Assembly (NCBI GenBank): GCA_035221665.1
Contig: CM069148.1
Location: 51,832,001-51,896,000 of the forward strand
DNA length: 64,000 bases
Direction: 5' to 3'
Source: Okamejei kenojei
Taxonomy: Eukaryota
The notes beneath the pieces are model-generated. The model made no database searches. It saw only the letters and a list, made by a program, of their open reading frames with translations, and was not told where the DNA came from. Position numbers and translations under genes: made by a program. Positions 1,536-60,554 of this stretch are shown piece by piece; positions within the stretch are counted from its first letter, which is position 1; each line of letters opens with the position of its first letter.

Positions 1536-1745
1536 TGGAAGGAACTGCAGATGCTGGTTTATACCGAAGATAGACACAAAAAGCTGGTGTAACAGCGGGT
1601 GAGACAGCATCTCTGGAAAAAAGGAGTAGGTGATGATTTTGGGTTGGGACCCTTCTTCAGACTGGGGGTCCTTTTCTCCAGAGGTGCTGTCTGACCCGCT
1701 GAGTTACGCCAGCATTTTCTGCCTATCTGAATTGTGCAGATGTTT
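1536..1745. mobile_element. Penelope-derived fold-back repeat (degenerate hammerhead on - strand)
   Basis: ggaactgcagatgctgg...cagcatctctgga...gggttgggacccttcttcagac followed by an inverted copy (gctgtctgacccgctgagttac). Confidence 0.7.
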
Positions 1746-2819
1746 CTTTGACTTATTTTATACAACGAGTAGAGAATTCTTATTTTTCAACTGCATGAAA
1801 TCATTGGATTTAATTTCAAAACTCCTGTTACTGCATAATCGAATTATTCTATCTATTGGTCGGACAACTGACTAAATGAAACTGTGGGGACACCAAAGCT
1901 GTCAAATAATTTATTTTTTTACTTACATCATTTAAGGTATGATCTAAGGGGAGCGCTTGCATGACAAAAGCAAATTCTACTTTTGTGTCTCTCATCTGTA
2001 GCTGAAAAGAGGAACAATTCCTCTTGTGCCAATATTTGTCGAGCATAAATATTTGTAACCGTTACCATGGTAATTTAGGAAAAAAAACACAAGAAACAGT
2101 AAATGTTGAAAGTTACACCGGGAACAAGGATAAATATTTCTGGGGAAGAATTTAAACTTTAGATAGCATGTAGGTGAAATTTTGGAAATGTTATCACACA
2201 GCCGCCGGTGGCCAGGAGAAGGGGCAGGGTTTTTCCTCCGTTTCCAGTCAAGCATATGCTCCACGCATCAGTTCTTCGCACAGTCATTTGGTCTGTGTTT
2301 TAACTGCTCAGATGTAAAACATTAGCAGATACCACAAAGGCTTCAGTGAGGTCTTTTGTTCCCTTCCATGTGGTGATTTTGCAGGTTGCGCAGGGTTTTG
2401 GAAGCATGTTTGCTTTAGCTTGCCTCGTCAGGAGTGGCGGGGGAAGGAGTGCAAGACATCCAAGCAGGAAATAGACTAATTCATATGTGGTTTTCAACAA
2501 TATTAGACAAATTTTAAAAGGGACTGATTATCCATTACGACGCAATTGAGTCCATATGGACTTGGCAATAATAAGTCTATTTTATCCCCAAGTTTCAATG
2601 GATGGTTCAAATTTCCTCCTGTCTCAGAATACACACAGAGGGAAATCTTTAACATCCCAATGATCACGGCTGTTGATTCCACTTTAGAAGACAAACTCGT
2701 GAAACCCTTTCCTCTTAATGTTACAACGAGGGAATATTAATTTACGTAATTCAATGAGTGTCTTGTTATTTGGAAATAGAGTGCAATTTCTTTTTTGGCA
2801 ACTCAAACGACATTAGATC

Positions 2820-3215
2820 TAGGTTTAGGTTTAGGTTTATTATTGTCACATGTACCGAGGTACAGTGAAAAGCTTTGTCTTGCATGCTATCCAAACAGAT
2901 CACATAACCCTTTACATAAATACAATCGTCAAACTCAAGAACAATAGATAGAGCAAAGGGGAAGATACAGAGTGCAGAATATAGTTCTCAGCATTGTAGC
3001 GCATCAGTTCCAGAGACAAAGTCCAATGTCCGCAATGGGGTAGAGATGAATCGCACAGTACCCTAGCTTATGGAAGGACCGTTCAGAAGCCTGATAACAG
3101 AGGGGAAGAAGCTGTTCCTGAGTCTGGTGATGTGCACTTTCAAGCTTCTGTACCTTCTGCCGGACAGGAGCGGGGAGAAGAAGTAATGACTGAGGTGGGA
3201 CAAGTCTTTTATTAT
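2820..3215 (-). mobile_element. Rex1/Babar-type LINE 3' end
   Basis: (TTTAGG)n tail and ttattgtcacatgtaccgaggtacagtgaaaagc motif, shared with copies that carry Rex1-like ORF ends (17655-18250). Confidence 0.7.
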
Positions 3216-3775
3216 GGGATGGTTAGCATATTATCTAAAGTGCTTCATTACAACCGCATGATAGTTCTTTTAATCTTTGAGCGTGACTCCTGTCTGCACC
3301 TATCCTTAAGGTACCGACTCCCATGGTGTTTGGAGCTAGCCGCCACCCTAATATGCTGTCTCTGCAGTGAGACTGACTAATGAATGCTCGCGAGCTGCTC
3401 AATTATCACAACTATTGCATCTCCTTCAACGCTGAGGCTATAATTTTTCGACAAGTGTGCAGACTTTTATTTTGGTGTCACTGGGCAACAGTTAAGACAG
3501 GGATCTCTGGCTGATTTGTTTCCTCTCCCACTTATCATGTTCGATGATACAATGATTCAATTCAAGGATTTGATGATACTTTATTGTCGCATGTACCTCG
3601 GTCCAGTGAAGCTGATTGTTGGTGCATACGGTCCGGTGAAATCACACAGCACACCTCACCCTGGCAGTACACAGAGTCGCCACATTTCTGGTGCCGACAG
3701 AGTTTCAAACGTTTTTTGTAACAGTCTTATCCTCTCACAGCGGCAAAGCAGGCCTGCCTCTGCACATGGCCACAG

Positions 3776-4060
3776 GTGCCCCCCTCCCCCCCACTGGGTC
3801 CCTCTTCCTTCTTGTTTTTCCCCACCAGGTTCCCCCCTACATTCTTGACGGCCCCCCCGCCAGGTCCCTCTTCATTCTCGGTGATCCCCCACTGGGTCCC
3901 TCTTCATTCTTCATGCCCCCTCCCTCCCGGGTCTCTTTTTGTTCTGGGTGTTTGCCCACCGCATCCCTCGATGTTCTCAGTGACCCTCTGCTGGGTCCCT
4001 CGTCTCCACCCCTCCATGCCAGATCCCCCTACCTCCCCTACATCCAGGTCCCAGTAACCC
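3776..4060. repeat. Degenerate C-rich minisatellite, core ccactgggtccctcttcattct
   Basis: Core recurs near 3790, 3860, 3888, 3925 and 3990. Confidence 0.6.
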
Positions 4061-4287
4061 CCTGCCGGGTCCACCATTTGACGGTGCCGCCATGGTTGAG
4101 GGCCGACCAGGTTATCATGAATCAGGCATCGGAAATGGACCCAGAGTGTTCATGGGTCATCTTGACCATGGATGGTTAATTTAGCTTTCAATTCCACAAT
4201 TGTTATATGCTTTTGACCCAAGGACGTAAACTTGGCAATTGCAAAATAGAGCAAAATTATCAGTTGCTATTGATGGACCCAAAATTG

Positions 4288-4561: not shown

Positions 4562-4724
4562 AAAATGCTGGAATAACTCAGCTGGACAGGCGGCATCTCA
4601 GGTCTGAGAAAGGGTCTCAACCCAAAATGTCACCCATTCCTTCTATCCAGAGATGCTACCTGTCCCGCTGAATTACTCCAGCATTTGTATCTATCTTCAG
4701 TGTAAACCAGTATCTGCAATTCCC

Positions 4725-5095
4725 ATCTATACATCTACTACTATTAGAGTCATAGACTCATACTGAATGGAAATAGGCCCTTCGGCCCAAATTTCCCATG
4801 CTGACCATCTACGCTGGTCACATCTGCCCGCATTTGGCCCATATCCCCCTAAACCTGTCCTGTCCATGTATCTGTCCAAATGTCTTTTAAATGTTATAAT
4901 ACCTGCCTCAACGACCTCCTCTGACAACTTGATCCATAAACCAACCAAACTCCATGTGGAAACGTTGCCCCTCAGGTTGCTAGTAAAATGTTCCTCTTTT
5001 ACATTAAACCTATGTCCTCTGGTTCTTGATTGCCCTACCTTGAGTAAAAGATACTGTGTATTCACCCTATCTATTCCCCTGATGATTTTACACAT
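4725..5095 (-). mobile_element. CR1 LINE 3' fragment (older subfamily)
   Basis: Minus-strand translation SRTRGHRF...FKRHLDRYMD...GRCD. Confidence 0.85.
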
Positions 5096-5875: not shown

Positions 5876-6670
5876 ATGGAGGAGAATTAGAATGAAAGGC
5901 ATGAGAAGATTCTACCACCATTGACTGATATTCAATCCTGAATGAATAGATTAGTATAATGTACACTGCTAAAATAAATTAAAGAGAATGATCTTTGTCC
6001 TTTTATATTCCTGTAATGTGGATGCATTGTCACTAGCAAGAGTGGCATCTATAACTAATTCTTAATTACTATTGCGTAGATTATAGGTTCACATGTAGGC
6101 ACAGTAGGTAACTAAATAAAGAGGGTTAGATTTCTTTGCAAGAGGCGTGAATTCTAACGTTGGGAGTGCTTGGTACAATTTAACGAGCATGAATGAGATC
6201 ACACTTTTCTTTACAAAAGCAAGTTTATTTGTAGGTACAAAATCACGGTGTAAACATTGGTCTAAGATAAAAGCTGCAAGGAAAGGCCTGGGAACTACAG
6301 ACCTGTGAGCCTTACTTCAGTGTGTGGGAAGGAACTGCAGGTGCTGGTTTTCACCGAAGATAGACACAAAGTGCTGGAGTAGCTCAGCGGGACAGGCAGC
6401 ATCTCTGGAGATGAGGAAAAGAGCTGATTCAGACTGATCGAGAAAGGAGAGGGAGGTGATCTCACATCCTTTTGTCTCCTTTTTTTAATAATCTCTCACC
6501 TTTGCCCACTCATCTGAAATCACAACTCCCTCTCCTGTTTCCACCTATCACTCGCCAGTCTTTGTCCCACCCCTCCCTCACTTTTCCAGCTTTCTCCCTC
6601 CGACCACAAGAAGAAGGGTTCCTGACCCGAATCATCACCTATCCATGTCCTCCAGAGATGCTGCCTGACC

Positions 6671-6984
6671 CATATAACCATATAACCATATAACAATTAC
6701 AGCACGGAAACAGGCCCTCTCGGCCCTTCCAGTCCGTGCCGACCATTTGTTTTTCCCTAGTCCCATCTACCTGCACTCAGACCATACCCCTCCATTCCCT
6801 TCACGTCCATATACCTATCCACTTTACTTTTAAATGTTAAAATCGATCCTGCCTCCACCACCTCTGCTGGAAGCTCATTCCACACAGCCACCACCCTCTG
6901 AGTAAAGAAGATCCCCCTCACGTTACCCCAAAACCTCTGTCCCTTAATTCTCATGTCAAACCTCTGTCCCTTAATTCTCATGTC
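6671..6984 (-). mobile_element. Young CR1 3' fragment with a 27-bp duplication at its 5' end, inside a Penelope-derived repeat
   Basis: (CCATATAA)n tail at 6671. aaacctctgtcccttaattctcatgtc occurs twice in tandem. Host resumes at cgctaagttactccagc. Confidence 0.9.
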
Positions 6985-7310
6985 CCGCTAAGTTACTCCA
7001 GCTCTTGGTTTTGTACTCAGGATTCCAACATCTGCAGTTCCTTGTGTCTGTATTCATACTTTTGTTGATTCATACAAGGCTTTGTTTTCTCCTGTTAGAG
7101 GTTGATGCAATATCATTCACTATTATTGACTTCTGCGACTTTAGTATGATTTTCAGGAAAGGAAACGAAAACACAAAAAGCTGGAATAAATCAACGGGTC
7201 AAACAGCGTCTCTGGAGTGAAAGAATAGGTGACCTTTCGGGTCGAGACCCTTTTTCAGTCTTTGAGTTACTCCAGCTTTTTGTGTCGACGCTATCTGACC
7301 GGCTGAGTCA

Positions 7311-10425: not shown

Positions 10426-10610
10426 AATTTTAATATTTTATGTAAACAGAGCTGAGAATAATTTCAAGCAGATGGATATTGTTCTAATTTCCACTGCAGC
10501 TTAAGTACAAAGAACTGCAGATGCTGGTCTACACAAAAGACACAAAGTGCTGGAGTAACTCAGTGTGTCTGGCAGCATCTCTGGAAATCATGGATAGGTG
10601 ACATTTCATC

Positions 10611-10644
10611 GGTCTGATGAAGGCCCCTGACCCGAAACGTCGCC
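10611..10644 (+). ncRNA. Minimal type-I hammerhead ribozyme motif (best core-retaining copy) in a Penelope-derived repeat
   Basis: ggt-CTGATGA(10614-10620)-A-gg...cc-GAAAC(10634-10638)-GTC(10639-10641)-gcc. Stem I is ggt/gcc; stem III is reduced to an ACGT palindrome. Activity untested. Confidence 0.65.
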
Positions 10645-10829
10645 TGTCCTGCTTTGTTCCGACTAAAGTATGATGAGTTTTACATTTACCATGCAATCTG
10701 AGTCTCTTAATTGTTTGTTCTGCTACTCCTGACCCTTTTGGCAGTATTAGGAACGCATTTTATACACTAATTTCTACACTTGGTTAGAAAACGTTTCGAG
10801 GGATACGAGTCAAATGTGGGAAAATGTGA

Positions 10830-12730: not shown

Positions 12731-12811
12731 AGTATCTGATGTTCATGTTGTTGTGTTTGCCGTGGCCCGGAGCTGTTTGTGTGTTTGAAACATATTATTG
12801 TGTAAAAGTAA

Positions 12812-13005
12812 AACACAGAGTGCTGGAGGAACTCAGTGGGTCAGGCAGCATCTGTGGAGAACATGGAGGGGTGACATTTTGGGTCGAGACCCTTCTTCTG
12901 AACCTGAGAGAACCTGACCCAAAATGTTGATGCCTGGCCCACTGAGCTCCTCCAGCACTTTGTGTGTTGCTCAAGATTACAGCATCTGCAGTTCCTTGTG
13001 TCTCC
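12812..13005. mobile_element. Penelope-derived fold-back repeat
   Basis: gtgctggaggaactcagtgggtcaggcagcatc...gggtcgagacccttcttc followed by an inverted arm. Confidence 0.75.
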
Positions 13006-16050: not shown

Positions 16051-16614
16051 ACCTGATGGAGGCAGGACCTAGTGGGTATGAAATGGGAGGCTAACAGTTT
16101 GCACAGCTTTGTATGCATGCAGGAATATTTACTCTGCTCAAAGAGTGTCAATCAGAGAGCAATAGCATGGGAGACATCATAAATTTCTAAGCTGATGCCG
16201 AGGAACAGACATGAGCTGTCATGTTTGAACTAACATTGCAGGACCGGGGTAATGGATGCCTTCACGTGGTCCAGTAGTCAGCAGATTCTCTTGTGGTGAT
16301 GGATGCTGTCAGCATTCTCAATGTTACACCAGATTCCACCGCACAATCAACGTGGCTTTCCCAGCCCGTGCAAAACGAGATCGATTTATCCTGAGTGCTC
16401 GTCGCTTGCTAAATGAAATTAATGCACTGTGTCGGGAGGAACTGGTTTACACTGAAGATAGACATAAAATGGTACATGCGTAGGACAGATTTGGAGGGAT
16501 AATAACCAAAGGCGGGCAGGTGAGACTAGTGCAGCTGAGACATGTTGGCCAGTGTGGCCAAGTTGGGCCGAAGGACCCGTTTCCATACTCTTTCCCTCTA
16601 TGAAATCTATGAAA

Positions 16615-16875
16615 CTCAGTGGGTCAGGCAGCACCTCTAGATAGAAGGAACGGGTGACATTTTGGGTCGAGACCCTTCTTCAGGCTGAGAGTCAGGGGAG
16701 AAGGAGACACAGAGATATGGATGGGTAAGTTGTGGAAACGAGACATCAAAGGGGATGTGTATCAAGGGGAATAGAATAGAATATTGTCGGCTCGGGGAAG
16801 TTGACAACAAAGCACACAAAGATAAAATGTAATGAGGAAGGCAGTCAGGCTGGTTGGAGAACTAGGATGGGGGGT
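16615..16875 (-). mobile_element. Penelope 3'/pLTR fragment just upstream of the SOX6 acceptor
   Basis: Reverse complement reads ctgaagaagggtctcgacccaaaatgtcacc, plus Penelope 3'UTR-like sequence similar to 24600-24940. Confidence 0.7.
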
Positions 16876-16916
16876 TGGCTGTGTTGCTCTGTTCTCTTCC
16901 TGCTCGGGTGTTTGAG

Positions 16917-17150
16917 GGAGTAAGGCCGTGAATGGGTCTGCAGCTAATCTACAGCAGTGTGATTGTTGGCCTACAGGGAGTACTACAGTACCGGAGGCTC
17001 GGGTCTACAGAGAAACCAGGGGTCGCAGCAACAACGAACCGCACATCAAACGACCAATGAACGCCTTCATGGTGTGGGCGAAGGACGAGCGCAGGAAAAT
17101 ACTGCAAGCCTTTCCAGACATGCACAACTCGAACATCAGCAAGATATTGG
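16917..17150 (+). CDS. SOX6: SOX6 exon (N-terminal part of HMG box); alternative in-frame acceptor at 16977
   Basis: [79 protein letters not shown]. Acceptors tttgAG|16917 and ctacAG|16977; donor GTGAGT at 17151. Confidence 0.95.
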
Positions 17151-17229
17151 GTGAGTAATTGGGCAAACCATGCCTCAAACTACAGCTACCTCCTTCCTTT
17201 GACGACAGTGTTTATCACCCAACTCATAG

Positions 17230-17550: not shown

Positions 17551-17654
17551 CATCAAATTATTATGGACACACGGAACTGCGGATGCTGTTTTACAAGGAA
17601 ATACACAAAGTGTGGAACAACCTAGAGTGGGTCAGGCAGCATCCTCAGAAGCCT

Positions 17655-18250: not shown

Positions 18251-18939
18251 GCTCAGTGCCTGGAGGACATGAACGGACAGTGTTTCCCGTCAGACTGAAG
18301 CATTTGAAGGATCCCTACCCAAAACGTCGCCTGTACCATTTCCTCCACAATTGCTGCCTGACCCACTTTATGCTCTACTCAACATGCCAGTATCTGCAGT
18401 TCCTTGTGACTCAATTTTAAGAAACTATCTTCCAGGAATGTGTTAACGTACTTTTATGAACAGGGATGTAATATTTTAATATCCTTGTTACGCATCTGAA
18501 GAGTGAGAGGCTGCTGTTGTCATTCAATGTGAATCAGTTGTCTAAGGTTACCTGCTATAAATCCATAGGCAAAATGCAAGCAAATGGGAATAGTGCAAGA
18601 TGTCCACCAAGAACATGATGGGCCAAAGGGCCTTCTTCTGTGCTGTATATCTCTATGACTGAAAACCATGCCATGGTGTTCAGAATGCCTGAATAGCCCC
18701 ACGCAGTTCCCGTAGGGGTTGGGTTCACCAAGAGTTCAATCAACTGTTGGCAAAAGGTCCATCAAATAAAAGTGAAAAATGCTAGAATTAGACAATTCTC
18801 CTCAAAATCTACTGGAATGGTATTTTGCGGAGTTGAGTAACAGAGCATAAGAAGAACGATGACTGAATACAAATGTATGCGGGTGAGAATCAAAATATTT
18901 GTAGTCTGGAACGGTGCAAGAAGGAAGGACCCCCCATGG

Positions 18940-34103: not shown

Positions 34104-34445
<342 letters not shown>

Positions 34446-34583: not shown

Positions 34584-34630
34584 AGTTGGAGAATTCAATG
34601 TCCAAGAGCAATATGAGGTGCTGTTCCTCC
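34584..34630 (-). mobile_element. Penelope GIY-YIG C-terminal remnant
   Basis: Minus strand reads EEQHLI...DIEFSN, matching the IDFSNFK* end at 24575. Confidence 0.55.
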
Positions 34631-37556: not shown

Positions 37557-40214
37557 ACTACAGCTGCAATCAGACGCTGACTCTGAACAAAAAAAAGTTA
37601 TTGTTGAGCTTGCATGTGTGGTCCTACAGACTCATCAACAATGGTCTTAACTGTTACTTAATGTGTGAAGCATTCTGATTTGGTTTTTTTTAACGTATCA
37701 TGGACATTTTACATTACTGGCGACAGCCTGAAAACAAAAAAAAAACAAATGAAAACATCAGGACTTGAAAGTTGTTGCTTAATATAAATTCATAGCTATC
37801 TGGCAGTCTTAATTTTTATTTTGCTTTCTCTTCTGTGAGCTTTTATTTTTTCCAGTGCTTTGGTTACTTTTTTTCGTAAGGGGCGGGGGGGGATTATAAC
37901 CTCACTCAGGTATGCTGTGCCAACCAGCAACTTGTGAATGTGTTTTTAATCTGAACTATTTAAAATAATTTAAATTTCGTAGTTCGAAACAAAAAAAACA
38001 ACAGAAAGTTGGGTAGGGGATTGGGGTGGGGAACCAACATTAAAGATGACAACACGCACAAAAGGTATCACGTCAAACAATGTGCCAGGCCTTGGCTGGC
38101 TTTCTTGACATCTTTTTTGTTTTTCTTTTTGATTTGCATCTTGTACAGTTTGTGAAAAAAAAGAAGAAAAGTGCCAAGCATCGATTGACATTGAACTCTT
38201 AAAACACTCTGAAAAGTCTTACTTGGGAGTCACTGCAAAAGTCTTAGACAATCGTCTGTGATTTAGTGAGGAGATGTGGTAACACTTACAGGATGGGTTT
38301 CCATCCAGACAGCAGTGAAGTTACTCAGGAAAATGGAGAAAGGATTTTTGTTTATTGCAACCTGCCACAGTGCATGTGTCCCGTGATTTTGTTTCAGACA
38401 CGTGATGTGCCACGAATAAGGTGTTCAACAGTTATTCCTCAATGCAGAACACACAACAGGCAGCTCGTCAAGTTGTCTTCTTAGAATAGTTCCTTAACCT
38501 TTACCTCATTACACTGAGCTGCAGTGAGAATATCTTCATCATTCCGCAGATCCAAGGGGCCAGAGATCTCAGAGCATTGAATTCAAAAGGAAACGAAGAG
38601 TGTGGCTGGGGAAATATTAAAATAACCGTAGGGTTAAACCAGTGACTGTAAACCGAGGATAGTCTGCTCAGCATGGGAAATATTCCCACAAAGCAGAGTT
38701 TAAATCGGAATCACTCATTATTAACTAAGAGACAATACTTTTCTCCTGAAGGGTATGTCAATCTGAAACATCACCTATCCATGTTCTCCAGAGATGCCGC
38801 CTGACCCACTTACTCCAGCATTATGTTTCCATGTCTCCTCACTCACACTCTAATCCCTTTTCTTCAGCATCAGAACAGTACCAATGCCAACCCACAACCC
38901 TGTCACACAAGTCAGATGGCTATTCCCAGCTCAGCTTTGAACAGATAATGTGGTGCTCGTCAGAGTCATACAGCACGAAAACAGGCCCTTCGCCCCAACT
39001 CGTCCATGCTGACCAACATGCCCCGTCTAAGCTATTCCCATTTGCCCACCTTTGCCTCATATCCCTCGAAACCTTTCCTACCCACGCACCTGTCCGAGTG
39101 TCTTTTCAACTTGTACCTGCCTCAACTACCTCTTCTGGCAGCTTGGTGCTCGTACCCACCACACTCGGAGGGATAGCGATAGGATGAGTGAGGGTGGGGA
39201 AAGAGATTTGGGGGGTGTGGAGGAGTTGCCATATTCTTAGTTAACTCCACGAGCATCACCTGTGGCTTAGTCAAAAGCACACAGTTCATAGTCACAGACA
39301 GTTATCGAGTCATACTGAGTGGAACCATCACCTTAGGCCCAACCTGCCCTTGCCCCATCCGCACTAGTCCCCCGCTGCCTGCTATTGGCCCCTAACCCTC
39401 GAAACTTATCATGTGCCTGTCCAAATATTTCTTAAATGTTGCGCTAGTACCTATTTGTTTTTCCTCCCTCTCTACCCCATCTCCTCCCTCAACCCCCACC
39501 CCTCCCCCTCACCTTCCCCCTCGCTCACCCCCTCGCTCACCCTCTCCCTCTCCCTCGCACCTAGCCCTTCCCCTCTACCTCCGGTGTTCCCACCGCTGGC
39601 TTGTCCGGGCTGCCACCAGCGTGTAGTACCGAGGTGGTCCCACTGCTTGGTGCTTGCAGCCTTAAACAGAGGTCCCGCTGGCTGCCACAGGTGTTTACTA
39701 AAGAAAGTCGAGGAGCAGGGGACTAATCCTTTATCCTTTGGCCAACATATCAATTAGATTACCAGATCATGAAGATTTGCGCCATCCTTCCCTGCACCAT
39801 TGCTTGCTGTTTTTCCAATTCTTCAACAGTGTCTGGGCTTTAGAGGTACCTCACTGACTGCAATATGCTTCAGGCCACGAAAGAGGCCACATAAACGGAA
39901 GTCTTAGTTGTTCCAAGAGTCTTAGCCGTTTCCCAATGGCATCAAACCACAATACTTAAAGCAATTCCATTCCTCAGGCTCTTGCCATTCACCTTGAAAA
40001 GCACAAATGGGGCAGAGATAGAGCAGGAGGATATCGAATACTAATCACTTAAATTCACAATGTCTTAATTCATCTACTGTGAAAATTACTTACACTATGG
40101 TCTTAAACAGAATTTGGATGAGCAGGAAGTAAATGGGTTTGTTTTTAAAAAAAATATATATAGCGCAGCCCAATAAGACATAAGGTTCATCTCCAATAGC
40201 AGCCCTGCATATTC

Positions 40215-45049: not shown

Positions 45050-46479
45050 CACATAAATATATATATATTCACCATCACTCCATCTTTTGTACTGCTGTTG
45101 ACACTTAATTAAAGATACATTTTGTTTTATGAGGCTTGTGTTTCTTCTATGATTTATCAAGGGATTCATTTATGATTGCCGTTTACTTTGAGTTTGAAAG
45201 AGAGTGTTAATAATAGAGCAACACAGAATGTGTTGGAGGAACTCAGCGAGTCAGGCAGCGTGCGTGGTAGGAATGGGCAGATGAAGCTTCGGAGCTCCTC
45301 CATGAGTGCTGCTTGAGTTCCACCATCACTTTCTTTTTAGCTCAGGATTTCAGCATCTGCCATTCATTGTGCCTCCTTACTAATATTCTCTGGGATTTTA
45401 TTTATTCAGTCATCCAATTTGTTTGCATATTGGTTCAATTTAAGCTTTGTAAAATGGCCATTTGAAAAATCGATGATCCATGAAATTAGACATTTACAAA
45501 GACATTTTAAACGAGTTGATCATAGTTTTGCCCACTCAGTTTTCTCAGATATTAAATGAACCTGGTCTAATTTTTCAACTCATGGTTGAACCGATCACCT
45601 AGTGTGGATTTGGAAAGATGCCTCTTAACAAGTAACATGCACTTGTACAATACTTTCCATTAAAATGGAGCACATAATTGGTAGAAACGTGGCTGATGCT
45701 AAACTAAAATAAATTAAGAAAAAGACCAAAAGTAGAGGGACATTTTTTAATGGAAGTTATTATAGCAACAATGTGCAATAAGGGAAATTAAAGCCTATCT
45801 TTTAACTGCACTTTAAAATAATTTTTCAAGATTTGCCTTTACCATTTGAAATGTTACAACTTCTTGTCAGTCGGAAGAGCCCAAACACTTTGCATCTTGG
45901 AAAGTGCCCCCCTGACGTGAGAGTTTACCCTTTTTAAACACTTCAATGCTTCCTCTGGGACATTGGTGACCAGAACTCTTTCTTTCAAACTGAGCAATGT
46001 AAAACAAAAAGCCAAAGTACCGGAGTAACTGAGCGGGTCAGCCAGCATCTCTGGAAGACATGGAAAGGCAACGTTTTGGGTCGGGACCCTTCAAACTGTT
46101 ATCCACGTCACCTACCCATGTCTTGCAGAGGTGCTGCCTAACCTATTGAGTGACTTCAGCACGCTGAGAATGTTTTTGTAGATCAGCATCTACAGGGCCT
46201 TGTGCCTAAACTGTACAATGTTTGATCATAATTCTTCTAACTTGTTTTTATACTAATTTGTCCATATTCAATTATATTGCTGTGTCAAACTCTATTTAGG
46301 CTGAACATTAGAAAATCAAGTCTGATAGTTCCTTTTCAACTCTACCTGAGAACCTGTGGCAGTTTGTGTCACACCTGGCTGTTAATTCTACAGCAACAAG
46401 GTGAATGACGGAGCATGGTGTGAGGTGGGAACTCTGTGGCTGAACACTTGGATTCCAATGATTGCTACAGCAAGGATTA

Positions 46480-48845: not shown

Positions 48846-50084
48846 GTCGCTAAAAAAGCGAATGTTAACAAGGCCTTTGATTTTACCCCTTATCCAACCA
48901 TAACTGAGAAGTATTTTATACAAATACAACCACAGTAATCAAACTGATTATTCCACAGATGGGCACAAAATGCTGGAGTAGCTGTCACCTTGGTAAGGGA
49001 CAGACTGGCGATTCAATAGACAGTGCCTGGAGTGTACATGCACCACAGGGCTCTGAGAACATTGTTATGTAACAAGAAAGAAAAGGATTAGCAAATGTTA
49101 ATGTGCGTCCCTTCTAGATTGAGAAACATAATTTATAATATGGAAACAGAAGGGGCCAAACTTAAACATGTTCCATGCACCCAGGCACCCACTGATAATA
49201 ATTGTTTAGGAGTGTATAGGAAGGAACTGCAGATGCTGGTTTAAAACAAAGATAGAGACAAAAAGCTGGAGTACCTCAGCGGGACAGGCAGCATCTCCGG
49301 AGGGAAGGAATAGGTGACGTTTCGGGTCGAGACCCTTCTTCATTATTATATTGTTTTTACCATGCAATGTAAGGTGCACAAAGGCTCCTAAAACACTTGA
49401 TACAGAGTGTAAATGTCTGCGGATAGTGCCCTGGTGTACACACATTTATACAGTTCTGCCACTTTGTATCTGAACATAGTCACCACCCTTCTCATTTGAT
49501 GGGTTGACACCCATGTTGCTACAGCAAACACATACATGTTCCATCTCCATTAATTAGTGCATCGGCAGCACAGTTGAAAACACTTCAAGCCTTAATTTAA
49601 CACTTTGCATTAGAAACTGGTCAAAAGTGCCCTTTCTGTGGTACTGGCAGCTGATTTTTAATGAACAACCTGGTTGTGATACGTTTCTTCTGCTATCTCA
49701 GTGTGACAGTGCTGGAGAGATCAGCACATAACTAATGCCTTCACTGGCGTAACGGAAACGAAGATTCATGTTAGTGAAGTCGAAGGTAGACATAAATGCT
49801 GGAGGAACTCAGCGGGTGAGGCAGCATCTATGTAGAAAAAGAATAGGTAACGTTGCGGGTCGAGACCCTCCTTCAGACTGATGTTGGGAAAAAGAAAGGA
49901 AGAGACGGAGACAGTGGCGATTGATGGTTAGCATAGATGTCTTTCACAACTGTTCACTAAACCAAAACATATGCCGCATTTTATCTGATCTGTTTGAACA
50001 ACATACGAAACAAAGCTTTTCACCGTACCTTGGTACCAGTGACAATAATAAACCTAAACCTAAACATATACCTGGACAGGTATA

Positions 50085-50910: not shown

Positions 50911-51163
50911 AATGTCAGTCACCTTAGCACTCAAATAGATCTGCAACAGGTCCATGAAGCTGGCATCTGAACCACTGTTCCACACTAAAGTCTCAAGCTA
51001 ACCTCCAGCTTACATCTCATCATTCACTGTGTGGTGGCTGGCATTCTTAAACTGAATGTAGAAACAAGGAACCACAGATGCTGGTTTACAAAAAGATGAC
51101 ATGAAGTGCTGGAGTAACTCAGCAAGTCAGACAGCGTTTCTGGAGAACATGGATAAGTGACGT

Positions 51164-52115
51164 TGATAATTACTCGCTTCTAAGCTTCCCCCCGTCTAGT
51201 TTCAGTAAAAACACCGAATCAAGCACTTGAAACAACTACATTTTATTTTACCAAAAGCACGTCACAGATTACACATTGTACCTATCCCACCGCGGGTTCG
51301 ATCCTCGCGTCTGTCTGTTCAAGCCCTCTAGGCTTTGCTCCCGACAGAGGCACTCCAGAAGTTTACGCGATCCCGAGCGCTCTTCCAGTAGATCGACGCT
51401 GAGCCTCGTGATCATAGACTTTTATGTCCCGGGACCTCGAGGGGCCGAACCACATGGGGGTGGTCTCTCAATAACCCAATTACAGATATCGATTAACCCC
51501 ATGCATAACAGGCATTCCCCTAACCCAATGATCCAACAGTTCAATACATTGTATTCACAACGGACTTCGAGATGAAGTCAACTTGGAAACATTTACCCTG
51601 ATTAACAGAAAACCCAGACAAGGCTCAACTCCTCATCCAATCTACACTTGGCAGTCAGACTCTGCAACATTATTTACAACTATTTACAAGGTCTATTCAT
51701 TGGCTATATTTAAGAGGGAGTTAGATGTGGCCCTTGTGACTAAAGGGATCAGGGGGTATGGAGAGAAGGCAGGTAAAGGATACTGAGTTGGATGATCAGC
51801 CATGATCATATTGAATGGTGGTGCAGGCTTGAAGGGCCGAATGGCCTACTCCTGCACCTAATTACTATGTTTCTATGTATGTCTGGTTTGCAGCCATCCA
51901 ATCCATTCTATGCATTTTGCACCAGATTGACGGGGTTTGCAGAGCTTCCCATTCTTTACTTGCAAATTGTATCTAAGCTCCAGACACACTGGCACCTCTT
52001 CGCAGCCTGTCCCAGCTCTGCAGAGAGTAATTCCAATTAGACCAAATCTCCCAGCAACCCTGAAACATAACCCTAATTTGAAGTCCCAGCTGCTCCAATT
52101 TAGCCAGGATTAACA
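51164..52115 (-). mobile_element. Solo LTR (same family as 55-816) containing a CR1 tail at ~51691-51876
   Basis: TG...CA termini; TSD ACGT at 51160-51163 and 52116-52119; interrupts a Penelope hammerhead repeat. Confidence 0.85.
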
Positions 52116-52669
52116 ACGTTTCCGATCGGGACCTTTCTTCAGACAAAAAGGAGTGTGGGAGATGGGAGAAGGGGGCATCACTGGGCAGCGTGGACTCCTT
52201 ACCAGAGAGAAAGGTCCAGAGGTGGAGGGGGCAGAAGAAGATCTAAACATCATGGACAGCTTGGTACTCATTGAGGTGTGGCCATGGGGATACAAAGGTA
52301 AATCTAAAGAATAAAGGGGAGGTCATTTAAGACTGAGGTGAAAAAAAACATTTTCACCCAGAGAGTTTATGGAATTCCCTGCCACAGAGGGCAGTGGAGG
52401 CCAAGTCACTGGATGGATTTAAGAGAAAGTTAGATAGAACTCTAGGGGCTAGTGGAGTCAAGGGATATGGGGAGAAGGCAGGCACGGGTTATTGATAGGG
52501 GATGGTCAGCCATGATCACAATGAATGGCAGTGCTGGCTCAAAGGGCCGAATGGCCTCCTCCTGCACCTATTTTCTATGCTTCTGTGTAAGGCCTCTCTA
52601 CTGAAGACCAACCACTCTGTTTCAGGTAGAGGGAGGTCAGGGAGGATGGTGAAACTTGTCGGGGGTTTA

Positions 52670-53030: not shown

Positions 53031-55657
53031 AGAGAGGGGGGCAGAGGAGTGGAGGGTGGAGGCACCGTCAGGGGATGGTGGGGGCTCGGTGGGGTGGGGC
53101 TGTGAGGGATAGTATCGGGATGGTGCTGGGAGAAGTAGCACGGTTGGAAAGTGGGGAAGGGCAGCAGGACCCAATAGTGCTGTTAGAGTTATAGTCTTGC
53201 AGGATGGAAACAGGCCCTTCAGCCCAACTTGCCCACACCGACCAACATGTCCCATCTACACCAGTCCCACCTGCCTGCGTTTGGCCCATATCCCTCTAAA
53301 CCCCATCCTATCCATGTACTTGTCTAAATATTTCTTAAACATCACGATATTACCTGCCTAAACTACCTCCTCTAGCAAATCGTTCCAAAACCACCACCCT
53401 TCCTGTAAAAAAAGTTTCTCCTCACCTTAAACCTATGTCCTCAGGTTCTCGATTTCCCTACTCTGGGCAAGAGACTGTGGATCTACCAAATCTATTCCGC
53501 TCATGGTCTTATGAGGTGAGAGGGGCAAGGTTTTAATAGGGACATGAGGGGCACAGAAGGTGGTAGGCATGTGGAATGAGCTGCCAGAGGAGGTAGTTGA
53601 GGCAGGAACTACAACGGTATTTAAAAGACATTTGGATAGGTACATGGATAGGAAAGGTTTAAAGGGAAGGCTCATAGTGCTGGAGTAACTCAGCGGGTCA
53701 GGCAGCATCTCAGGTGAATATGTAGAGATGATGATTTGAGTTGGGACTCTCAGCACTTTTAGTTTAGCTTGGTTTAGAGATACAGCGCGGAAACAGGCCT
53801 GCACCGACTAGTGATCCCCACACATTAACACTACCCTACACACACTGGGGCCATTTTACATTTATACCAAGCCAAATAAACTACAAACGTGAGTGTGGGA
53901 GAAAATCAAAGATCTCGGAGAAAACGCATGCAGGCCACAAACTCCGAACAGACAGCACCCGTATTCAGGATCAAATGCGGGTCCCAACGCCAGAGACTTG
54001 GGTTTGATCCCGACTACGGGTGCGCTCTGCACTGAGTTTGTACTTTCTCCCTGTGACCGCGTGGACCTAGTGTGTAGGGAGTGGATGTAAAAGTAGAAAA
54101 ACATAGAACTAGTGTGAATGGGCGATCACTGGTGATTGTGGACTCGATCGGCCAAAGTTCCACGCTGTATCTGTAAACCAAACTAAACTAAACTGAACAA
54201 TCCTTTGATAAGCTACTGTCTGATTCACCTCCACCCCACTGCAGAATTGGACTTTGTCTCTGGAACTGATGCGCTACAATGCTGGGAACTACATTCTGCA
54301 CTCTGTATCTTCCCCTTTGCTCCACCTATTGGACTGGATTTTGGCTTGATTGCATTTATGTAGAGTATTATGTGAACTGTTTGGATAGAATGCAACAAAG
54401 CTTTTCATTGTACATCGACACACGTGACAATAATAAATCTAAATCTATACGTTAAAGTTCTCAGCATTTAATCATGTTACTTTAATATTTCATCCTCCCA
54501 ATAGGTTTTGCAGAGTTGTAACCATCTAACATCCCATCCAATTCAAGCCTCTCTCATGCCCACATTCAATTATTAACTGCACTTCCACTAAATCTCCCCT
54601 CAGCCTCCTGTAATCTAAGCAAAACAGTCCCAACCTAGATAATCTCCCATCATAACCCCGGATCACCAACGCATGCCTAAATCTTCTCTGGACTTTCACA
54701 CGTGATTTGTCAATTTCAATGATTTTTAAACATTTAGACTTTACAGATACAACATGGAAACAGGCCCTTCAGCCCACCGAGTCCGTGCCGACCAGCAAGC
54801 AATCGATATCGAGTTTGTACGTTCTCCCTGTGACTGCATGGGTTTTCACCGGGTGCTCCAGTTTCCAACCACATTCCAAAGTCATGCAGGTTTGTAGGTA
54901 CGTTAACTTTGGTAAATTGTAAGGTTGTCCGTAGTGTGTAGTTTAGTGTTAGTGTAAAGAATGATCACTGGTTGGTGCTGGCTCGGTGGGCCGAAGGGTC
55001 TGTTTACACACTGTGTCTCTAAAGTCTACATTATATACAAGAAGCAATTTTTAAAAAGAAGGAAGGTGAGATGTGCTGAAATGCTGCCTGGGACCTCCGA
55101 TGGCAACTGGCATGGATATTGGTCTGCCCACCATTAAGAGCATCTGTTTGGAGCAGCCTGATGCAAAGTTGGGGCACAGGCTGCCAGATGGAGTTGCTGT
55201 CATAATCCATCTACATGCAGATGCTCTGGAATGATGCCCAGGCAATGGAATTCATCTCCACTTCCCACTTACCGGGTGAAGCTTTCCTAGAACTTGGCAT
55301 CCATTCCATGAAGGAAGGCGACTGGAAGCCGGCCAGCAGCTTTGACCAGGGAGAAAGTGCCGGCATCTCACTCCCTGCCCTTCCCCGAGAGATGGGAGGT
55401 AATCCTCCACCACGCACACCTTCTGTTTCCATTTTCTAAGAAGATTTTCTCCTAAAACTTGCCTGACTCTTTAATCAGTCCTAATGGGGACGCAAGTAAC
55501 CCTTGCTTTCCCATCCCTCCCCCTTCCCAGTTCTCCCATCAGTGTTACATTCTCCGATTACATTTTATCTCTGTCTGTTTTGTTGTTACCTTCTCCCAGC
55601 TAAACAATTCTCCATTTTCCTTGATCTACATTCCCTTTGTCCTATTTTCACTCCTTT

Positions 55658-56172
55658 AGCGGCTGTCCCACTGCGGCGACCTAAAAAGTTTGAAAAAGTG
55701 TCATGTTGGAAGACCTCCTTCGACCTCCTTCCACTATATTGATGACTAGCTTCGACTAGCTTTAGGAAAATTGGACAACGAATAGTGTAGAGTGAAGACG
55801 ACCTCTTTCGATCTCCTTTGACCTCCCTTCGACTATGTTGAAGACTATCTACGACTACTCTTCGCCTACCTTTGATTACATTAGACTACCCTCGATTACC
55901 TACGAATATAATGCCTACCTCGACTAAACCTACGAGTAAACAAAATATCGATTTTTTTCCATGACAACCTTTTTTTACTTGCGGGCATTTTTCAACATGT
56001 TGAAAAATACGGCGCGACCTAGCTGAGGCCTCAAGTACGCGGGGACTACTCACGAGCATGAAGGAGAGTTACAAAGACCTCCTAGGACCTCGTGTCGACT
56101 ATGCTGCGAGTATGAGTCGAGGGCAAACTCTTCTGAACTCGCGGATTAGGTCGTCGCAGTGGGACAGCCCCT
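55658..56172. mobile_element. PIF/Harbinger-type MITE (515 bp) inserted in a Penelope 3' fragment
   Basis: TIR ag(c/g)ggctgtcccactgcg(g/a)cgacctaa, TTT flanks, CpG-rich cgacct/cgacta internal repeats. Confidence 0.8.
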
Positions 56173-56216
56173 TTTTTTACACTTCCTTATCTATGTATCT
56201 CCCTCTCCCCTGACAT

Positions 56217-56255
56217 CAGTCTGAAGAAGGGTCTCGACCCAAAACGTCACCCATT
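56217..56255 (+). ncRNA. Near-consensus hammerhead motif (G12>A)
   Basis: cagtCTGAAGAAgggtctcgacccAAAACGTCacc. Confidence 0.55.
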
Positions 56256-56759
56256 CCTTCTCTCCAGTTGAGTTATTCCAGCATTTTGTGTCTATCTAAT
56301 GGAATGTATTCTTCCCACTGAATTATTGAAGTTTGAACTACACTTGGTCTCCAGTCCAAAAGTTATCTCAAAAATCATTTTGCCCTTCAGATTTGCCATT
56401 ATAACACTGATGGGGACAGACTTTGCCTTGCACCACTGATATTTTCCTGGAGCTTGCAAAGAAAGCACTTGTTTCAGAAAGAAAAAGTGGCATTCTTTCA
56501 AACATATAATAAAAAAAAGCTTTCTGTCGATTTGTAGCACTAATGTTACCTTGTAGTTCAATAGATGCTCAAAGGAACTTGGGTTTCAAGGCAGCACTCT
56601 GCTATTGCTGACACTGTTCTCAATTGGGTTAAATTACCAGCTCTGCAATTATGCCGTGACCATCTCTATGACACCAATAGCCTCAGCCTCAGATCCTCTG
56701 CTGTAGTGCTTACGTTGGCTAGATGTGAATTGAAGAACCAACATACAGACAGCACCAAG

Positions 56760-58290: not shown

Positions 58291-58508
58291 ACAAAAAAAT
58301 ACTCCAAATGCGGCTTGACCAAAGTCTTGGAGAGTCTGCTTCATGACTTCCTGACTCTTACGTTCCTCGCTTTGTCCGGAACTTGGTAACATCACATCCT
58401 TCATAGAACATAGAAAAATACAGCACAGGAACAGGCTCTTCCGCTCTCAATGTACATATCAAACACAATGACAAGATAGACAAATCTCATCAGTCTGTAC
58501 ATTATCTA

Positions 58509-60127
58509 CAGTGGCTTGCAAAAGTATTCATACCCCTTGAACTTTTCCACATTTTGTCACGTTACAACCACAAACGTAAATGTATTTTATTGGGATTTTA
58601 TGTGATAGACCAACACAAAGTGGTGCATAATTGTGAAGTGGAAGGAAAATGATACATGGTTTTCAAATTTTTTTACAAATTAAAAAACTGAAAAGTGTGG
58701 CGTGCAAAGGTATTCAGCCCCCTTTACTCTGATACCCCTAAATAAAATCCAGTGCAACCAATTGCCTTCAGAAGTCACCTAATTAGTAAATAGAGTCCAC
58801 TTGTGTGTAATCTAATCTCAGTATAAATACAACTGTTCTGTGAAGGCCTCAGAGGTTTGTTAGAGAACATTAGTGAACAAACAGCATCATGAATCCCAAG
58901 GAACACACCAAACAGGTCAGGGATAAAGTTGTGGAGAAGTTTAAAGCAGGGTTAGGTTATAAAAAAATATCCCAAGCTTTGAACATCTCACGGAGCACTG
59001 TTCAATCCATCGTCCGAAAATGGAAAGAGTATGGCACAACTGCAAACCTACCAAGACATGGCCGTCCACCTAAACTGACAGGCCGGGCAAGGAGAGCATT
59101 GATCAGAGAAGCAGCCAAGAGGCCCATGGTAACTCTGGAGAAGCTGCAGAGATCTACAGCTCAGGTGGGAGAATCTGTCCACAGGACAACTATTAGTCGT
59201 GCTCTCCACAAATCGGGCCTTTATGGAAGAGTGGCAAGAAGAAAGCCATTGTTGAAACAAAGCCATAAGAAGTCCCGTTTGCAGTTTGCCACAAGCCATG
59301 TGGGGAACACAGCAAACATGTGGAGGAAGGTGCTCTGGTCTGATGAGACCAAAATTGAAGTTTTTGGCCTAAATGCAAAACGCTATGTGTGGTGGAAAAC
59401 TAACACAGCACATCACCCTGAACACACCATCCCCACTGTGAAACATGGTGGTGGCAGCATCATGCTGTGGGGATGCTTTTCTTCAGCAGGGACAGGGAAG
59501 CTGGTCAGAGTTGATGGGAAGATGGATGGAGCCAAATACAGGGCAATCTTGGAAGGAAACCTGTTAGAGTCTGCAAAAGACTTGAGACTGGGGCGGAGGT
59601 TCACCTTCCAGCAGGACAACGACCCTAAACATACAGCCAGAGCTACAATGGAATGGTTTAGATCAAAGCATATTCATGTGTTAGAATGGACCAGTCAAAG
59701 TCCAGACCTAAATCCAATTGAGAATCTCTGGCAAGACTTGAAAATTGCTGTTCACAGACGCTCTCCATCCAATCTGACTGAGCTTGAGCTATTTTGCAAA
59801 GAACAATGGGCAAAAATGTCAGTCTCTAGATGTGCAAAGCTGGTAGAGACATACCCCAAAAGACTTGCAGCTGTAATTGCAGCGAAAGGTGGTTCTACAA
59901 AGTATTGACTCATGGGGGCTGTATACTTTTGCAAGCCACACTTTTTCAGTTTTTTATTTGTAATAAAATTTGGAAACCATGTATAATTTTCCTTCCACTT
60001 CACAATTATGCGCCACTTTGTGTTGGTCTATCACATAAAATCCCAATAAAATACATTTACGTTTGTGGTTGTAACGTGACAAAATGTGGAAAAGTTCAAG
60101 GGGTATGAATACTTTTGCAAGCCACTC
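58509..60127 (+). mobile_element. Full-length Tc1 (Passport-like IR/DR) transposon
   Basis: TA TSD at 58507-08 and 60128-29; 214-bp TIRs (58509-58722, 59914-60127) with outer and inner direct repeats. Confidence 0.97.
58889..59908 (+). CDS. Intact Tc1 transposase, 339 aa, DD34E
   Basis: Paired-like HTH, GRPPK linker, WSDETK / QQDND / SPDLNPIE with exactly 34 residues between the second D and E. Confidence 0.97.
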   Translation: MNPKEHTKQVRDKVVEKFKAGLGYKKISQALNISRSTVQSIVRKWKEYGTTANLPRHGRPPKLTGRARRALIREAAKRPMVTLEKLQRSTAQVGESVHRTTISRALHKSGLYGRVARRKPLLKQSHKKSRLQFATSHVGNTANMWRKVLWSDETKIEVFGLNAKRYVWWKTNTAHHPEHTIPTVKHGGGSIMLWGCFSSAGTGKLVRVDGKMDGAKYRAILEGNLLESAKDLRLGRRFTFQQDNDPKHTARATMEWFRSKHIHVLEWTSQSPDLNPIENLWQDLKIAVHRRSPSNLTELELFCKEQWAKMSVSRCAKLVETYPKRLAAVIAAKGGSTKY

Positions 60128-60154
60128 TATAACCATCCATTCCTTTCTTATCCA

Positions 60155-60212
60155 TGTGTGTGTGTGTGTGTGTGTGTGTGCGTGCGTGCTTGCGTGCGTG
60201 TGCGTGTGTGTG
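60155..60212. repeat. (TG)n/(TGCG)n microsatellite
   Basis: Directly visible. Confidence 0.95.
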
Positions 60213-60554
60213 TCTATCTATCTAAGGTAGACACAAAATGCTGGAGTAACTCAGCGGGACAGGCAGCATCTCTGGTGAGAAGGAATGGGTGACGTTTCGG
60301 GTCGAGACTGATAGATCTATCTATCTATCTCACATCAGTCAGTGCACGGGTCAATTATGGACAAACGATAAATAAGGGCCATGCCAAGAATATCCTTTTT
60401 CTGCAAGTGATGAGTGATGGCCTCTCTTTAAGGGTTTGCTTTTCTTCCTGTTTATACTAGGTCAAAGTGTCCAAGTACTTCGAATTATCTTGGAATTTTA
60501 GATCTCTGCAAATGTCAGTATAACATAACACCTCTTCTCTATTTACATCCTGTG

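Follow-up and report, generated by a model that had tools for sequence, protein, structure and literature searches.

Probable truncated ends of Penelope elements with a decayed minimal hammerhead motif around the skate SOX6 locus

The window, that is, the whole 64-kb stretch of skate DNA that was analyzed, carries three mapped coding exons of SOX6 (16976-17152, 34203-34421 and 37254-37553). The best matches of the last exon were skate Sox6 sequences (95-96%), in agreement with the locus given in the initial annotation. The window also harbors a dense repeat family. A profile built from the copies in the window returned 48 matches at E<1 in the 64 kb, 44 of which had E<0.01, and none in the reversed window. 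When arms separated by gaps of ≤200 nt were placed in one cluster, the 44 arms of the whole window formed 26 clusters, corresponding to ~29-30 insertions with 12 head-to-head pairs, and the family covered 4,020 bases (6.3% of the window). All 18 positions at which copies had been annotated before (7/7 on the + strand and 11/11 on the − strand) fell within these arms, 35535 and 60288 being 5′-truncated and devoid of CUGA. A ~30-nt motif (the tail) was present in 19/44 arms. The features are, in order:

1530..1734, both strands: head-to-head pair; − arm 1665-1530 (core G12A, tail), + arm 1670-1734
4562..4730, both strands: head-to-head pair; + arm 4600-4730 (G8A, G12A, tail), − arm 4602-4562
6322..6672, both strands: head-to-head pair; − arm 6421-6322 (tail), + arm 6610-6672 with pLTR subfamily B upstream; stops at a CR1-like insertion
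6981..7047, + strand: 3′ fragment, possibly the 6610 arm resumed beyond the CR1-like insertion
7160..7292, both strands: head-to-head pair; − arm 7264-7160 (G8A), + arm 7263-7292
10505..10649, both strands: head-to-head pair; + arm 10608-10649 (12/12 core letters), − arm 10608-10505 (tail), which covers the cleavage site of the + arm
12798..13004, both strands: head-to-head pair; − arm 12902-12798, + arm 12928-13004 (tail)
16611..16880, − strand: solo copy (G12A) with ~190 nt of upstream pLTR subfamily A
16976..17152, + strand: SOX6 coding exon, first part of the HMG box (100% to P0009 residues 593-651)
17568..17643, − strand: 3′ fragment without ribozyme
18292..18414, + strand: degenerate copy, core disrupted
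22693..22784, + strand: 3′ fragment without ribozyme
23685..23863, both strands: head-to-head pair; + arm 23741-23863 (A9C, G12A), − arm 23740-23685
24574..24945, + strand: most complete copy, with putative PLE ORF end (24574-24598), ~215 nt of pLTR subfamily A, hammerhead (12/12 core letters; base of stem II and stem I broken) and tail
25078..25250, both strands: head-to-head pair; − arm 25174-25078, + arm 25172-25250
31583..31800, both strands: head-to-head pair; − arm 31716-31583 (tail), + arm 31715-31800, which lacks the 5′ core
34203..34421, + strand: SOX6 coding exon, second part of the HMG box (exon mapping)
34581..34650, − strand: isolated remnant that by eye resembles a Neptune-type endonuclease C-terminus, unattached to a ribozyme
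35533..35659, + strand: solo copy without CUGA, tail present
35822..36270, − strand: copy (G12A, tail) with ~320 nt of upstream pLTR subfamily B; common to one related species
36471..36601, + strand: solo degenerate copy; common to three related species
36701..37186, both strands: − arm 36764-36701 facing, head-to-head, the + copy 36936-37028 (upstream pLTR subfamily B, U16.1C), whose 3′ part is duplicated twice in tandem (37028-37093 and 37094-37186, the latter with tail); holds the most favorable enzyme/substrate pair in cis, which is predicted to be unstable
37254..37556, + strand: last SOX6 coding exon and stop (exon mapping; skate Sox6 matches)
38747..38836, + strand: copy without CUGA, 1.2 kb past the stop, possibly in the 3′ UTR; common to related species
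45206..45371, both strands: old head-to-head pair
45990..46207, both strands: head-to-head pair
48946..48983, − strand: short 3′ fragment
49214..49348, − strand: solo copy, C3 missing, tail present
49750..49882, − strand: solo copy (A9G, A13C)
51061..51164, − strand: 3′ fragment from GAAA on, tail
52115..52147, − strand: fragment consisting of the core only (12/12 core letters), in which G10.1 and C11.1 no longer pair; family sequence is lacking beyond the cleavage site
53659..53752, − strand: degenerate copy
55493..56302, + strand: pLTR subfamily A, whose start has the stop-codon context seen at 24592; an element of ~515 nt (55658-56172) with inverted ends of 27 nt interrupts it, and the hammerhead (G12A) follows
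60215..60309, − strand: copy truncated inside stem II

The elements had been placed throughout the SOX6 locus, but only 31/44 arms lie upstream of the SOX6 stop, one lies 1.2 kb past it, and the other twelve, at 45-60 kb, are at least 7.6 kb beyond the stop and probably outside the gene. The divergence of the arms from the majority sequence had a median of 14.9% (36 arms), and arms within one pair were 63-91% alike, only modestly above random arms. The insertions at 36471, 36701, 37094 and 38747 were found joined to unique flank in contigs of two or three related species, and because these contigs bridge them they are old and fixed. The family is likely to represent old, fixed, 5′-truncated PLE ends, a phenomenon that is already known.

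The majority sequence of the family contains CUGANGA, an extra A, a stem II of 4-5 bp, GAAA, the palindrome ACGU and GUC. Thus, the features of the consensus first proposed were recovered: majority letters were present at all 12 core positions, the extra A after A9 was found in 24/24 arms spanning the core region, and stem III is reduced to the palindrome. In this palindrome (15.2-16.2), which stands in place of helix III, the C was kept in 18/24 arms and the G in 16/24, the losses being of the CpG type. The G10.1-C11.1 positions were paired in 21/24 arms (19 G-C and 2 G-U), and 84% of the helix II cells were paired. Stem I, which had gone unreported, is just 2 bp long in the majority sequence, with 78% of its cells paired, and is marginal for a helix I. 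The available text of PMC4209133 gives NNN CUGANGAH G..C GAAAN palindrome NU H as the consensus of the minimal hammerheads of PLEs, with helices I of 2-6 bp in the published examples, and tables 2-bp motifs for Culex, D. virilis and Oikopleura. The core, the extra base after A9, G10.1-C11.1, the CG palindrome and the pyrimidine-rich 5′ flank are alike here, whereas helix I lies at the lower limit of the published lengths and loop II is very small. Because the majority sequence fits this consensus, its assignment as a minimal, dimer-type, type-I hammerhead of Penelope origin is supported at the level of sequence.

The single copies presented a different picture from the majority sequence. A strict hammerhead descriptor, expected at 0.025 per shuffled 64-kb window, was passed by 0/24 arms spanning the core region, and none of the 10 Rfam matches at E≤10 was to a hammerhead family, so that the covariance-model search suggested in the initial annotation did not recover the motif. 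Only 5/24 arms kept 12/12 core letters, all five with a broken stem II; in the 10611 copy, two adjacent mismatches were observed in this stem. The decay at CpGs noticed before was evident: the catalytic G12, which lies within a CpG, was A in 12/24 arms, and G16.2 was A in 8/24. Outside CpGs, conservation of the core does not exceed that of the downstream sequence (254/277 vs 1430/1592 identities, 0.92 vs 0.90). Furthermore, stem covariation across copies, which had been named beforehand as a refuting test, was absent within the window, with compensatory changes in 0/7 stem pairs (18 copies); because the copies are dead and come from two close subfamilies, this bears on the copies and not on the parent. 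The hammerhead is therefore likely a passenger that decayed without selection.

We then considered the anatomy of the arms. Their 5′ ends were variable (columns 1-75), and their 3′ ends were bimodal, at columns 91-115 in 20 arms and 127-139 in 21, the four shorter ends including columns 80, 71, 43 and 35. In fold-back pairs the tail was found at one end in 9/12, at neither in 3/12 and at both in 0/12 (P about 0.05). Six arms extend upstream into two unrelated pLTR sequences (subfamilies A and B), and two of these reach the same stop-codon context. One of the two copies said to be attached to GIY-YIG remnants is indeed joined to one (24574/24575), which consists of ~8 codons plus a stop only. 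The remnant at 34584 is not joined: its ~70 nt lie on the − strand amid CR1-like pieces, ~900 nt from the nearest ribozyme copy, which is on the opposite strand. The 24574 and 34600 remnants were identical at 17/20 nt (0 comparable matches in 15 shuffles), and the 34584 peptide resembles by eye the end of Neptune1_Ap. By eye, the 24574 remnant is a putative PLE ORF end, and the family would belong to the Neptune clade. No RT/GIY-YIG ORF longer than the remnant was present in the window, and remnant searches gave no usable match, the single one being to an unrelated peptidase.

Endonuclease-bearing PLEs (Neptune, Penelope/Poseidon) likewise show heavy 5′ truncation and an inverted head-to-head arm (available text of PMC8557442 and PMC3846280), as well as a 30-40 nt tail on one end and a hammerhead located close to the pLTR 3′ terminus (same sources and PMC11167929), but here no ORF beyond the remnant was present in the window. 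The inversions and the one-end tail pattern, together with the consensus fit to PMC4209133, uphold the Penelope origin first proposed. That the likeness to a hammerhead is accidental, in a repeat of another class, appears far-fetched. The lack of an Rfam hammerhead at E≤10 and of covariation, and an ORF link made by eye only, would fit such an accident, but the majority sequence presents, in order, every core letter (12/12) along with the extra base, the closing G-C pair and the palindrome, the strict descriptor is rare in shuffled windows, and the motif lies downstream of an ORF-end-like stop in arms with a PLE-type tail and inversions.

Hence, we hold with good confidence that the repeats are 5′-truncated 3′ ends of an old endonuclease-bearing skate PLE, the hammerhead being a decayed passenger predicted not to cut SOX6 RNA. 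Following the available text of PMC11167929, a PLE protein would nick DNA and prime cDNA synthesis at either of two internal positions, ~95 and 65 nt 3′ of GUC, which would account for the two classes of 3′ ends. Synthesis would usually stop early, so that just the ribozyme-bearing end would be inserted, and two head-to-head arms would arise if both target strands were primed or if the cDNA snapped back, the arms often being joined via short TCA/TGA overlaps at the palindrome TCAG-T-CTGA, which spans helix I. The inserted copies then lost CpG letters, including the catalytic G12, and stem pairs, with no compensatory changes. To judge from the available parts of PMC4209133 and PMC11167929, the motif would act as a weak, protein-assisted dimer in the active parent.

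One feature is not predicted by simple random truncation: in 8/12 fold-backs the long arm starts 2-6 nt before C3, at the core edge (P about 5e-7 for a given 5-column window). Break points are thus concentrated where the ribozyme begins, and no such clustering occurs at the cleavage site. Among 41 counted arms, 12 end at columns 1-7 (0.12 per column vs 0.007 at columns 18-80), and since 8 of those 12 are fold-back long arms adjoining an inverted arm, the boundary is not an artefact of the model edge. The short arms of these eight start at different columns (12, 27, 27, 38, 43, 51, 58 and 73), so that they represent separate events. Such a boundary could be that of a discrete, non-autonomous unit of ~130 nt (hammerhead plus tail), transcribed alone and mobilized in trans by a PLE protein, with fold-backs made from the short RNA; non-autonomous PLE derivatives are known (available text of PMC8557442 and bioRxiv 2026.07.22.740005), and in three DNA runs >1,200 contigs per run diverge from the window at 35950, the same edge, with an agreement of only 0.34-0.35. 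We consider such a unit improbable. The hot-spot region is common to both upstream subfamilies, six arms run past it and 23/41 end further 3′, the unit length is not uniform, and diverged upstream pLTRs would explain the loose ends at 35950 just as well. ARAGORN found no tRNA genes, Rfam gave no tRNA-, 7SL- or 5S-type match on the arms, and the best candidate target-site duplications (4-7 nt) were inside the null (3-8 nt). The palindrome at the edge offers a simpler cause, palindromes having been described at inverted PLE junctions (available text of PMC3846280). From the SINE-like unit of the initial annotation there remains the clustering of 5′ ends at the ribozyme edge, but not the unit itself, given the 75-column range, the six longer arms and the missing tRNA head and target-site duplication. 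It is also conceivable, though we think it unlikely, that the ribozyme region itself sets the boundary of the insert, with PLE reverse transcription halting, or its template beginning, at the ribozyme 5′ edge and the cDNA being joined there to a second cDNA. If so, the ribozyme fold or a bound protein, and not cutting, would contribute to building the insertions, giving rise to a ~130-nt ribozyme-plus-tail unit that would make up about 6% of this skate DNA.

The initial annotation had further proposed that sense copies could pair in cis in SOX6 pre-mRNA, and cutting there might alter splicing or SOX6 levels. Ten sense arms within the gene span the core region, and the 36936 copy has an intact enzyme half, for which 37101, ~150 nt upstream of the last 3′ splice site, offers a substrate-like GUC. 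These arms are common to related species. However, a full ribozyme was found in 0/10 of these arms, and stem II had a predicted probability <0.1 in 8/10. In folding models, whose energies leave out tertiary contacts and proteins, the 36936/37101 fold exceeded the ensemble by 12-44 kcal/mol and the 10611 fold by 16. Even for the majority sequence, the active dimer was predicted at −6.1, whereas two free monomers reached −11.0 and an inactive dimer −20.8. In the available text of the sources, published minimal hammerheads had no monomer activity and low dimer activity (PMC4209133), and the anole motif depends on its protein, with no cut ends from it in RNA-seq (PMC11167929). Sense arms upstream of the stop were not depleted in this window (18 + vs 13 −). 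Masking by an antisense arm was borne out in that 6/10 sense core-region arms have a partner, but this covers core letters in only two (10608 and 31715). With no intact sense ribozyme, no selection or covariation and the best arrangement at least 12 kcal/mol above the free ensemble, cis cleavage of SOX6 RNA is very improbable; the copies are predicted not to cut it, and there is no reason here to think that self-cleavage regulates SOX6.

Mass dispersal of solo hammerheads had been taken as new to this lineage, but the available text of PMC4209133 already describes it as the norm, the published motifs being mostly single, dispersed and derived from truncated PLEs, with some in opposite-strand pairs. 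It reports about 4,000 PLE hammerheads per genome in the coelacanth and about 9,000 in Xenopus; the skate density (one insertion per ~2.2 kb) is far higher, but those numbers count descriptor-passing motifs, of which there are 0 here. No term for cartilaginous fish occurred in the two supplement files of that paper that were searched. Non-LTR retrozymes are also PLE-related, non-coding and carry a type-I hammerhead, as the skate copies do (available text of PMC7229834 and bioRxiv 10.64898/2026.07.22.740005), and the latter reports them from one chondrichthyan genome, with a mean consensus of 363 bp. Retrozyme identity was not supported: tandem arrays with a ribozyme per unit would be expected, but the skate copies are solo or inverted, and in the sole tandem (36936-37186) only the leading unit carries the 5′ core. 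The skate pattern was not found described in the literature searched, which did not include Lunse et al. 2017 or Repbase/Dfam, nor was a break-point cluster at the hammerhead edge found for PLEs in the available text of PMC8557442, PMC3846280 and PMC11167929; according to the last, the hammerhead is not needed for PLE insertion in vitro. These results extend the solo minimal hammerheads of truncated PLEs to skates, which hold very many short PLE insertions with break points clustered at the ribozyme edge; the motif may act by cutting or as a stop/start signal.

All 18 of the positions named in the initial annotation, which had described a hammerhead-bearing Penelope repeat, fell inside one repeat family, and its observation as a whole was largely right. 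A first profile, for which six window copies were used, found 47 matches; when rebuilt from the 26 best copies it found 48 at E<1 and 44 at E<0.01, with none in the reversed window. These 44 arms (single profile matches) formed 26 clusters that covered 4,020 bases of the window, and included 12 pairs joined head-to-head. Because four of the 26 clusters include a tail-to-tail neighbour, the number of insertions was put at about 29-30. The host gene is SOX6, whose last exon in the window matched skate Sox6 at 95-96% and that of other rays and sharks at 84-88%, so that a skate is the probable source of the window.

SOX6 coding exons in the window, mapped by protein match
16976-17152: coding exon
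34203-34421: coding exon
37254-37553: coding exon

The arms had been placed throughout the SOX6 locus; this holds for the 31 arms that lie upstream of the SOX6 stop. Of the other 13, one is 1.2 kb beyond the stop and 12 are much farther on, at 45-60 kb. The window also contains a 149-N assembly gap at 41274-41422.

The ribozyme motif was analyzed in the 24 arms that cover G8 to U16.1. Their majority sequence consists of CUGAAGA, an extra A (24/24), a stem II of 4-5 bp, GAAA, CG and UC, and its helix I has no more than two pairs. It agrees with the consensus and the aligned motifs in the PMC4209133 supplement (Cervera and de la Pena 2014), which also has cases of a 2-bp helix I. No Rfam hammerhead family matched in a search of the window. 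The descriptor search that the initial annotation had proposed, here in a strict form (the core, UH and four uninterrupted stem II pairs counted from the base), found no intact hammerhead copy in the real window and 0.025 per window in shuffled ones. The majority form of the family is a hammerhead, and none of the copies in the window is one. All 12 core letters are kept in 5 of the 24 arms (10608, 24810, 25174, 31716 and 52147), and stem II is broken in each. G12, the catalytic base of the hammerhead, lies within a CpG because it is preceded by C11.1, and it reads A in 12 of the 24 arms, which bears out the CpG decay suggested at the outset. Agreement with the majority was 254 of 277 cells (0.917) for the non-CpG core letters and, under an identical filter, 1430 of 1592 (0.898) for the downstream columns; the median divergence from the majority was 14.9% (36 arms). 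Absence of stem covariation had been named beforehand as evidence against the hammerhead reading, and within the window no two-sided (compensatory) change was found in any of seven pairs across 18 aligned copies. A diverged hammerhead-like core, whose opposite arm is faint (E 0.97), was also seen at 26939 (+), within 26861-26985, and is possibly an older PLE family.

PLEs are described in PMC8557442 and PMC3846280 as heavily 5′-truncated, with a truncated copy lying inverted beside them and a tail of 30-40 nt at one end. In the skate family the 3′ ends of the arms fall into two groups about 30 nt apart. The tail motif was present in 19 of the 44 arms, and among the 12 pairs it was found at one end only in nine, at neither end in three and at both ends in none. 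Both arms of the fold-back 25078/25250 finish in an identical 13-nt sequence that is absent from the other copies, which suggests a distinct 3′ end or a flank duplication during fold-back. Six arms extend upstream into common pyrimidine-rich sequence, which is of two unrelated types.

Upstream pLTR sequences
Arms 24810, 56215 and 16690: type A
Arms 35952, 6610 and 36936: type B

The pLTRs of the 24810 and 56215 copies start at an identical stop-codon context, and the latter is interrupted by a MITE-like element of about 515 nt (55658-56172), which is bounded by 27-nt terminal inverted repeats; a 22-nt palindrome inside this element (55987-56008) recurs near 7493-7518. The initial annotation had attached two GIY-YIG remnants to ribozyme copies; the one at 24574 is indeed joined, and the one at 34584 is not. 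The 24574 remnant has eight codons followed by a stop and agrees with the 34600 remnant in 17 of 20 nt, a match that none of 15 shuffles reproduced. By eye, the peptide at 34584 is similar to the C-terminus of Neptune1_Ap in the supplement of PMC8557442. A search with the ORF remnant returned 11 candidates, none at E<=10, the Atlas search gave no usable match, and comparison with Pfam gave no family. A peptidase A4 protein (E 1e-3), the sole match to the ORF remnant among 1.84 billion proteins, was dismissed as chance. A six-frame motif scan of the window, which longer decayed ORF pieces could escape, gave only the two remnants and three chance matches. Target-site duplications at the window insertions did not exceed background, and pattern scans for family relatives with flanks gave none in viral contigs, metagenome contigs or prokaryote genomes. 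Since four scored searches gave no support for the likeness of 34584, and this remnant is unattached, PLE membership rests on anatomy and ribozyme type, and the ORF link is suggestive only. The Penelope origin proposed initially is likely right.

The second part of that proposal, a possible cis pairing of sense copies in SOX6 pre-mRNA, was weighed against the state of the arms. Of the sense arms inside SOX6, ten cover the core region; none of these is complete, and in local folding the predicted stem II probability was <0.1 in eight of them. The best cis pairing joins the enzyme half at 36942 to the GUC at 37101; its helix I has 2 bp and its helix III three weak pairs, and its fold is predicted to exceed the ensemble energy by 12 to 44 kcal/mol (16 for the 10611 copy). 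For the majority sequence, the predicted energies, which leave out tertiary contacts and proteins, are -6.1 kcal/mol for the active dimer, -11.0 for a pair of monomers and -20.8 for a dimer in an inactive fold. PMC4209133 reports no monomer activity and low dimer activity for minimal hammerheads. Nor are sense arms depleted (18 sense versus 13 antisense, small numbers). An effect of these copies on SOX6 RNA by cis cleavage is therefore very improbable.

How such arms might be inserted is suggested by an anole PLE, whose purified protein (PMC11167929) nicks and extends both target strands and begins reverse transcription at two internal positions, by which the tail is defined. Insertion there does not need ribozyme cleavage, the ribozyme cuts only with protein, and no ends at the cut site appeared in RNA-seq. 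By analogy, two start sites of reverse transcription would yield the two 3′ end classes, early termination of synthesis the short inserts, and two-strand priming or cDNA snap-back the head-to-head arms. A cleavage footprint in the 5′ ends was not accepted, as three events at the cleavage site (columns 34-38; 0.020 per column versus 0.007, P 0.10) are no clear enrichment, which is consistent with uncut templates. The 5′ ends were enriched just upstream of the core, so that in 8 of the 12 pairs the long arm begins 2-6 nt before C3 (background 0.007 per column). These eight fold-back events are separate, because their short arms begin at seven different columns. Several arm junctions show a TCA/TGA overlap, the majority sequence at the break-point cluster holds a small palindrome, TCAG-T-CTGA, and PMC3846280 describes palindromes where inverted PLE copies join. 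Among three candidate causes of the cluster, palindrome-guided joining is the most likely, followed by a template beginning at the core edge and, third, a block to reverse transcription by the folded ribozyme or its protein. In four arms (16690, 24810, 36936 and 56215) a pyrimidine tract and then CAG stand immediately 5′ of the core, resembling a 3′ splice site; in D. virilis Penelope an intron ends at helix I (PMC4209133 and PMC2377424). This CAG may be a splice acceptor, and no exon-1 letters in common were seen at the junctions.

Contigs of three other species were compared over the 7.3-kb stretch 33900-41200, and differ from the window by about 2-5%. Their sequence runs from unique flank into four arms, at 36471 in three species and at 36701, 37094 and 38747 in two each (by 41 letters at 38747), so these four insertions predate the species splits.

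Other elements in the window
58507-60129 and 19864-21487: Tc1-type transposon, two copies, with inverted ends of about 215 nt
29273-31455: 3′ part of a young CR1/L2-type LINE, with a 602-codon open RT frame (RVT_1 E 6e-36)
61051-64000: broken retroelement with RT (weak RVT_1) and RNase H-like frames
5588-5765, 8336-8462, 13089-13215, 27130-27354, 33310-33603, 48051-48275, 56764-57081 and others: second abundant repeat family

The Tc1-type copies are recent, because they are 97% alike over 300 nt, and 58877-59908 is open throughout as a transposase frame of 343 codons (Pfam Tc3 HTH, Sleeping Beauty HTH, DDE_3). LINE 3′ fragments at 4288-4562 and 6672-6958 are 97-98% identical to the LINE. The broken retroelement looks DIRS-like, and the second repeat family presumably resembles the tRNA-derived HE1 SINE of sharks and rays.

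In our literature search, which left repeat databases and Lunse et al. 2017 outside its scope, neither the skate family nor the break-point cluster turned up in any paper; a family from a shark or skate may be listed in file 1 of the PMC4209133 supplement or in the bioRxiv supplements. PMC4209133 counts solo minimal hammerheads in the thousands per vertebrate genome, with some in opposite-strand pairs, and ascribes them to truncated PLEs. Retrozymes, as described in PMC7229834 and bioRxiv 10.64898/2026.07.22.740005, are non-autonomous PLE-derived hammerhead repeats, one chondrichthyan included; they form tandem arrays, unlike the skate family. Nothing in the analysis establishes the family as a SINE or a retrozyme, and the SINE-like amplification of a hammerhead unit that had been proposed is possible only, and doubtful. 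The skate family behaves as a PLE minimal hammerhead family, and most of the testable features identify it as one.
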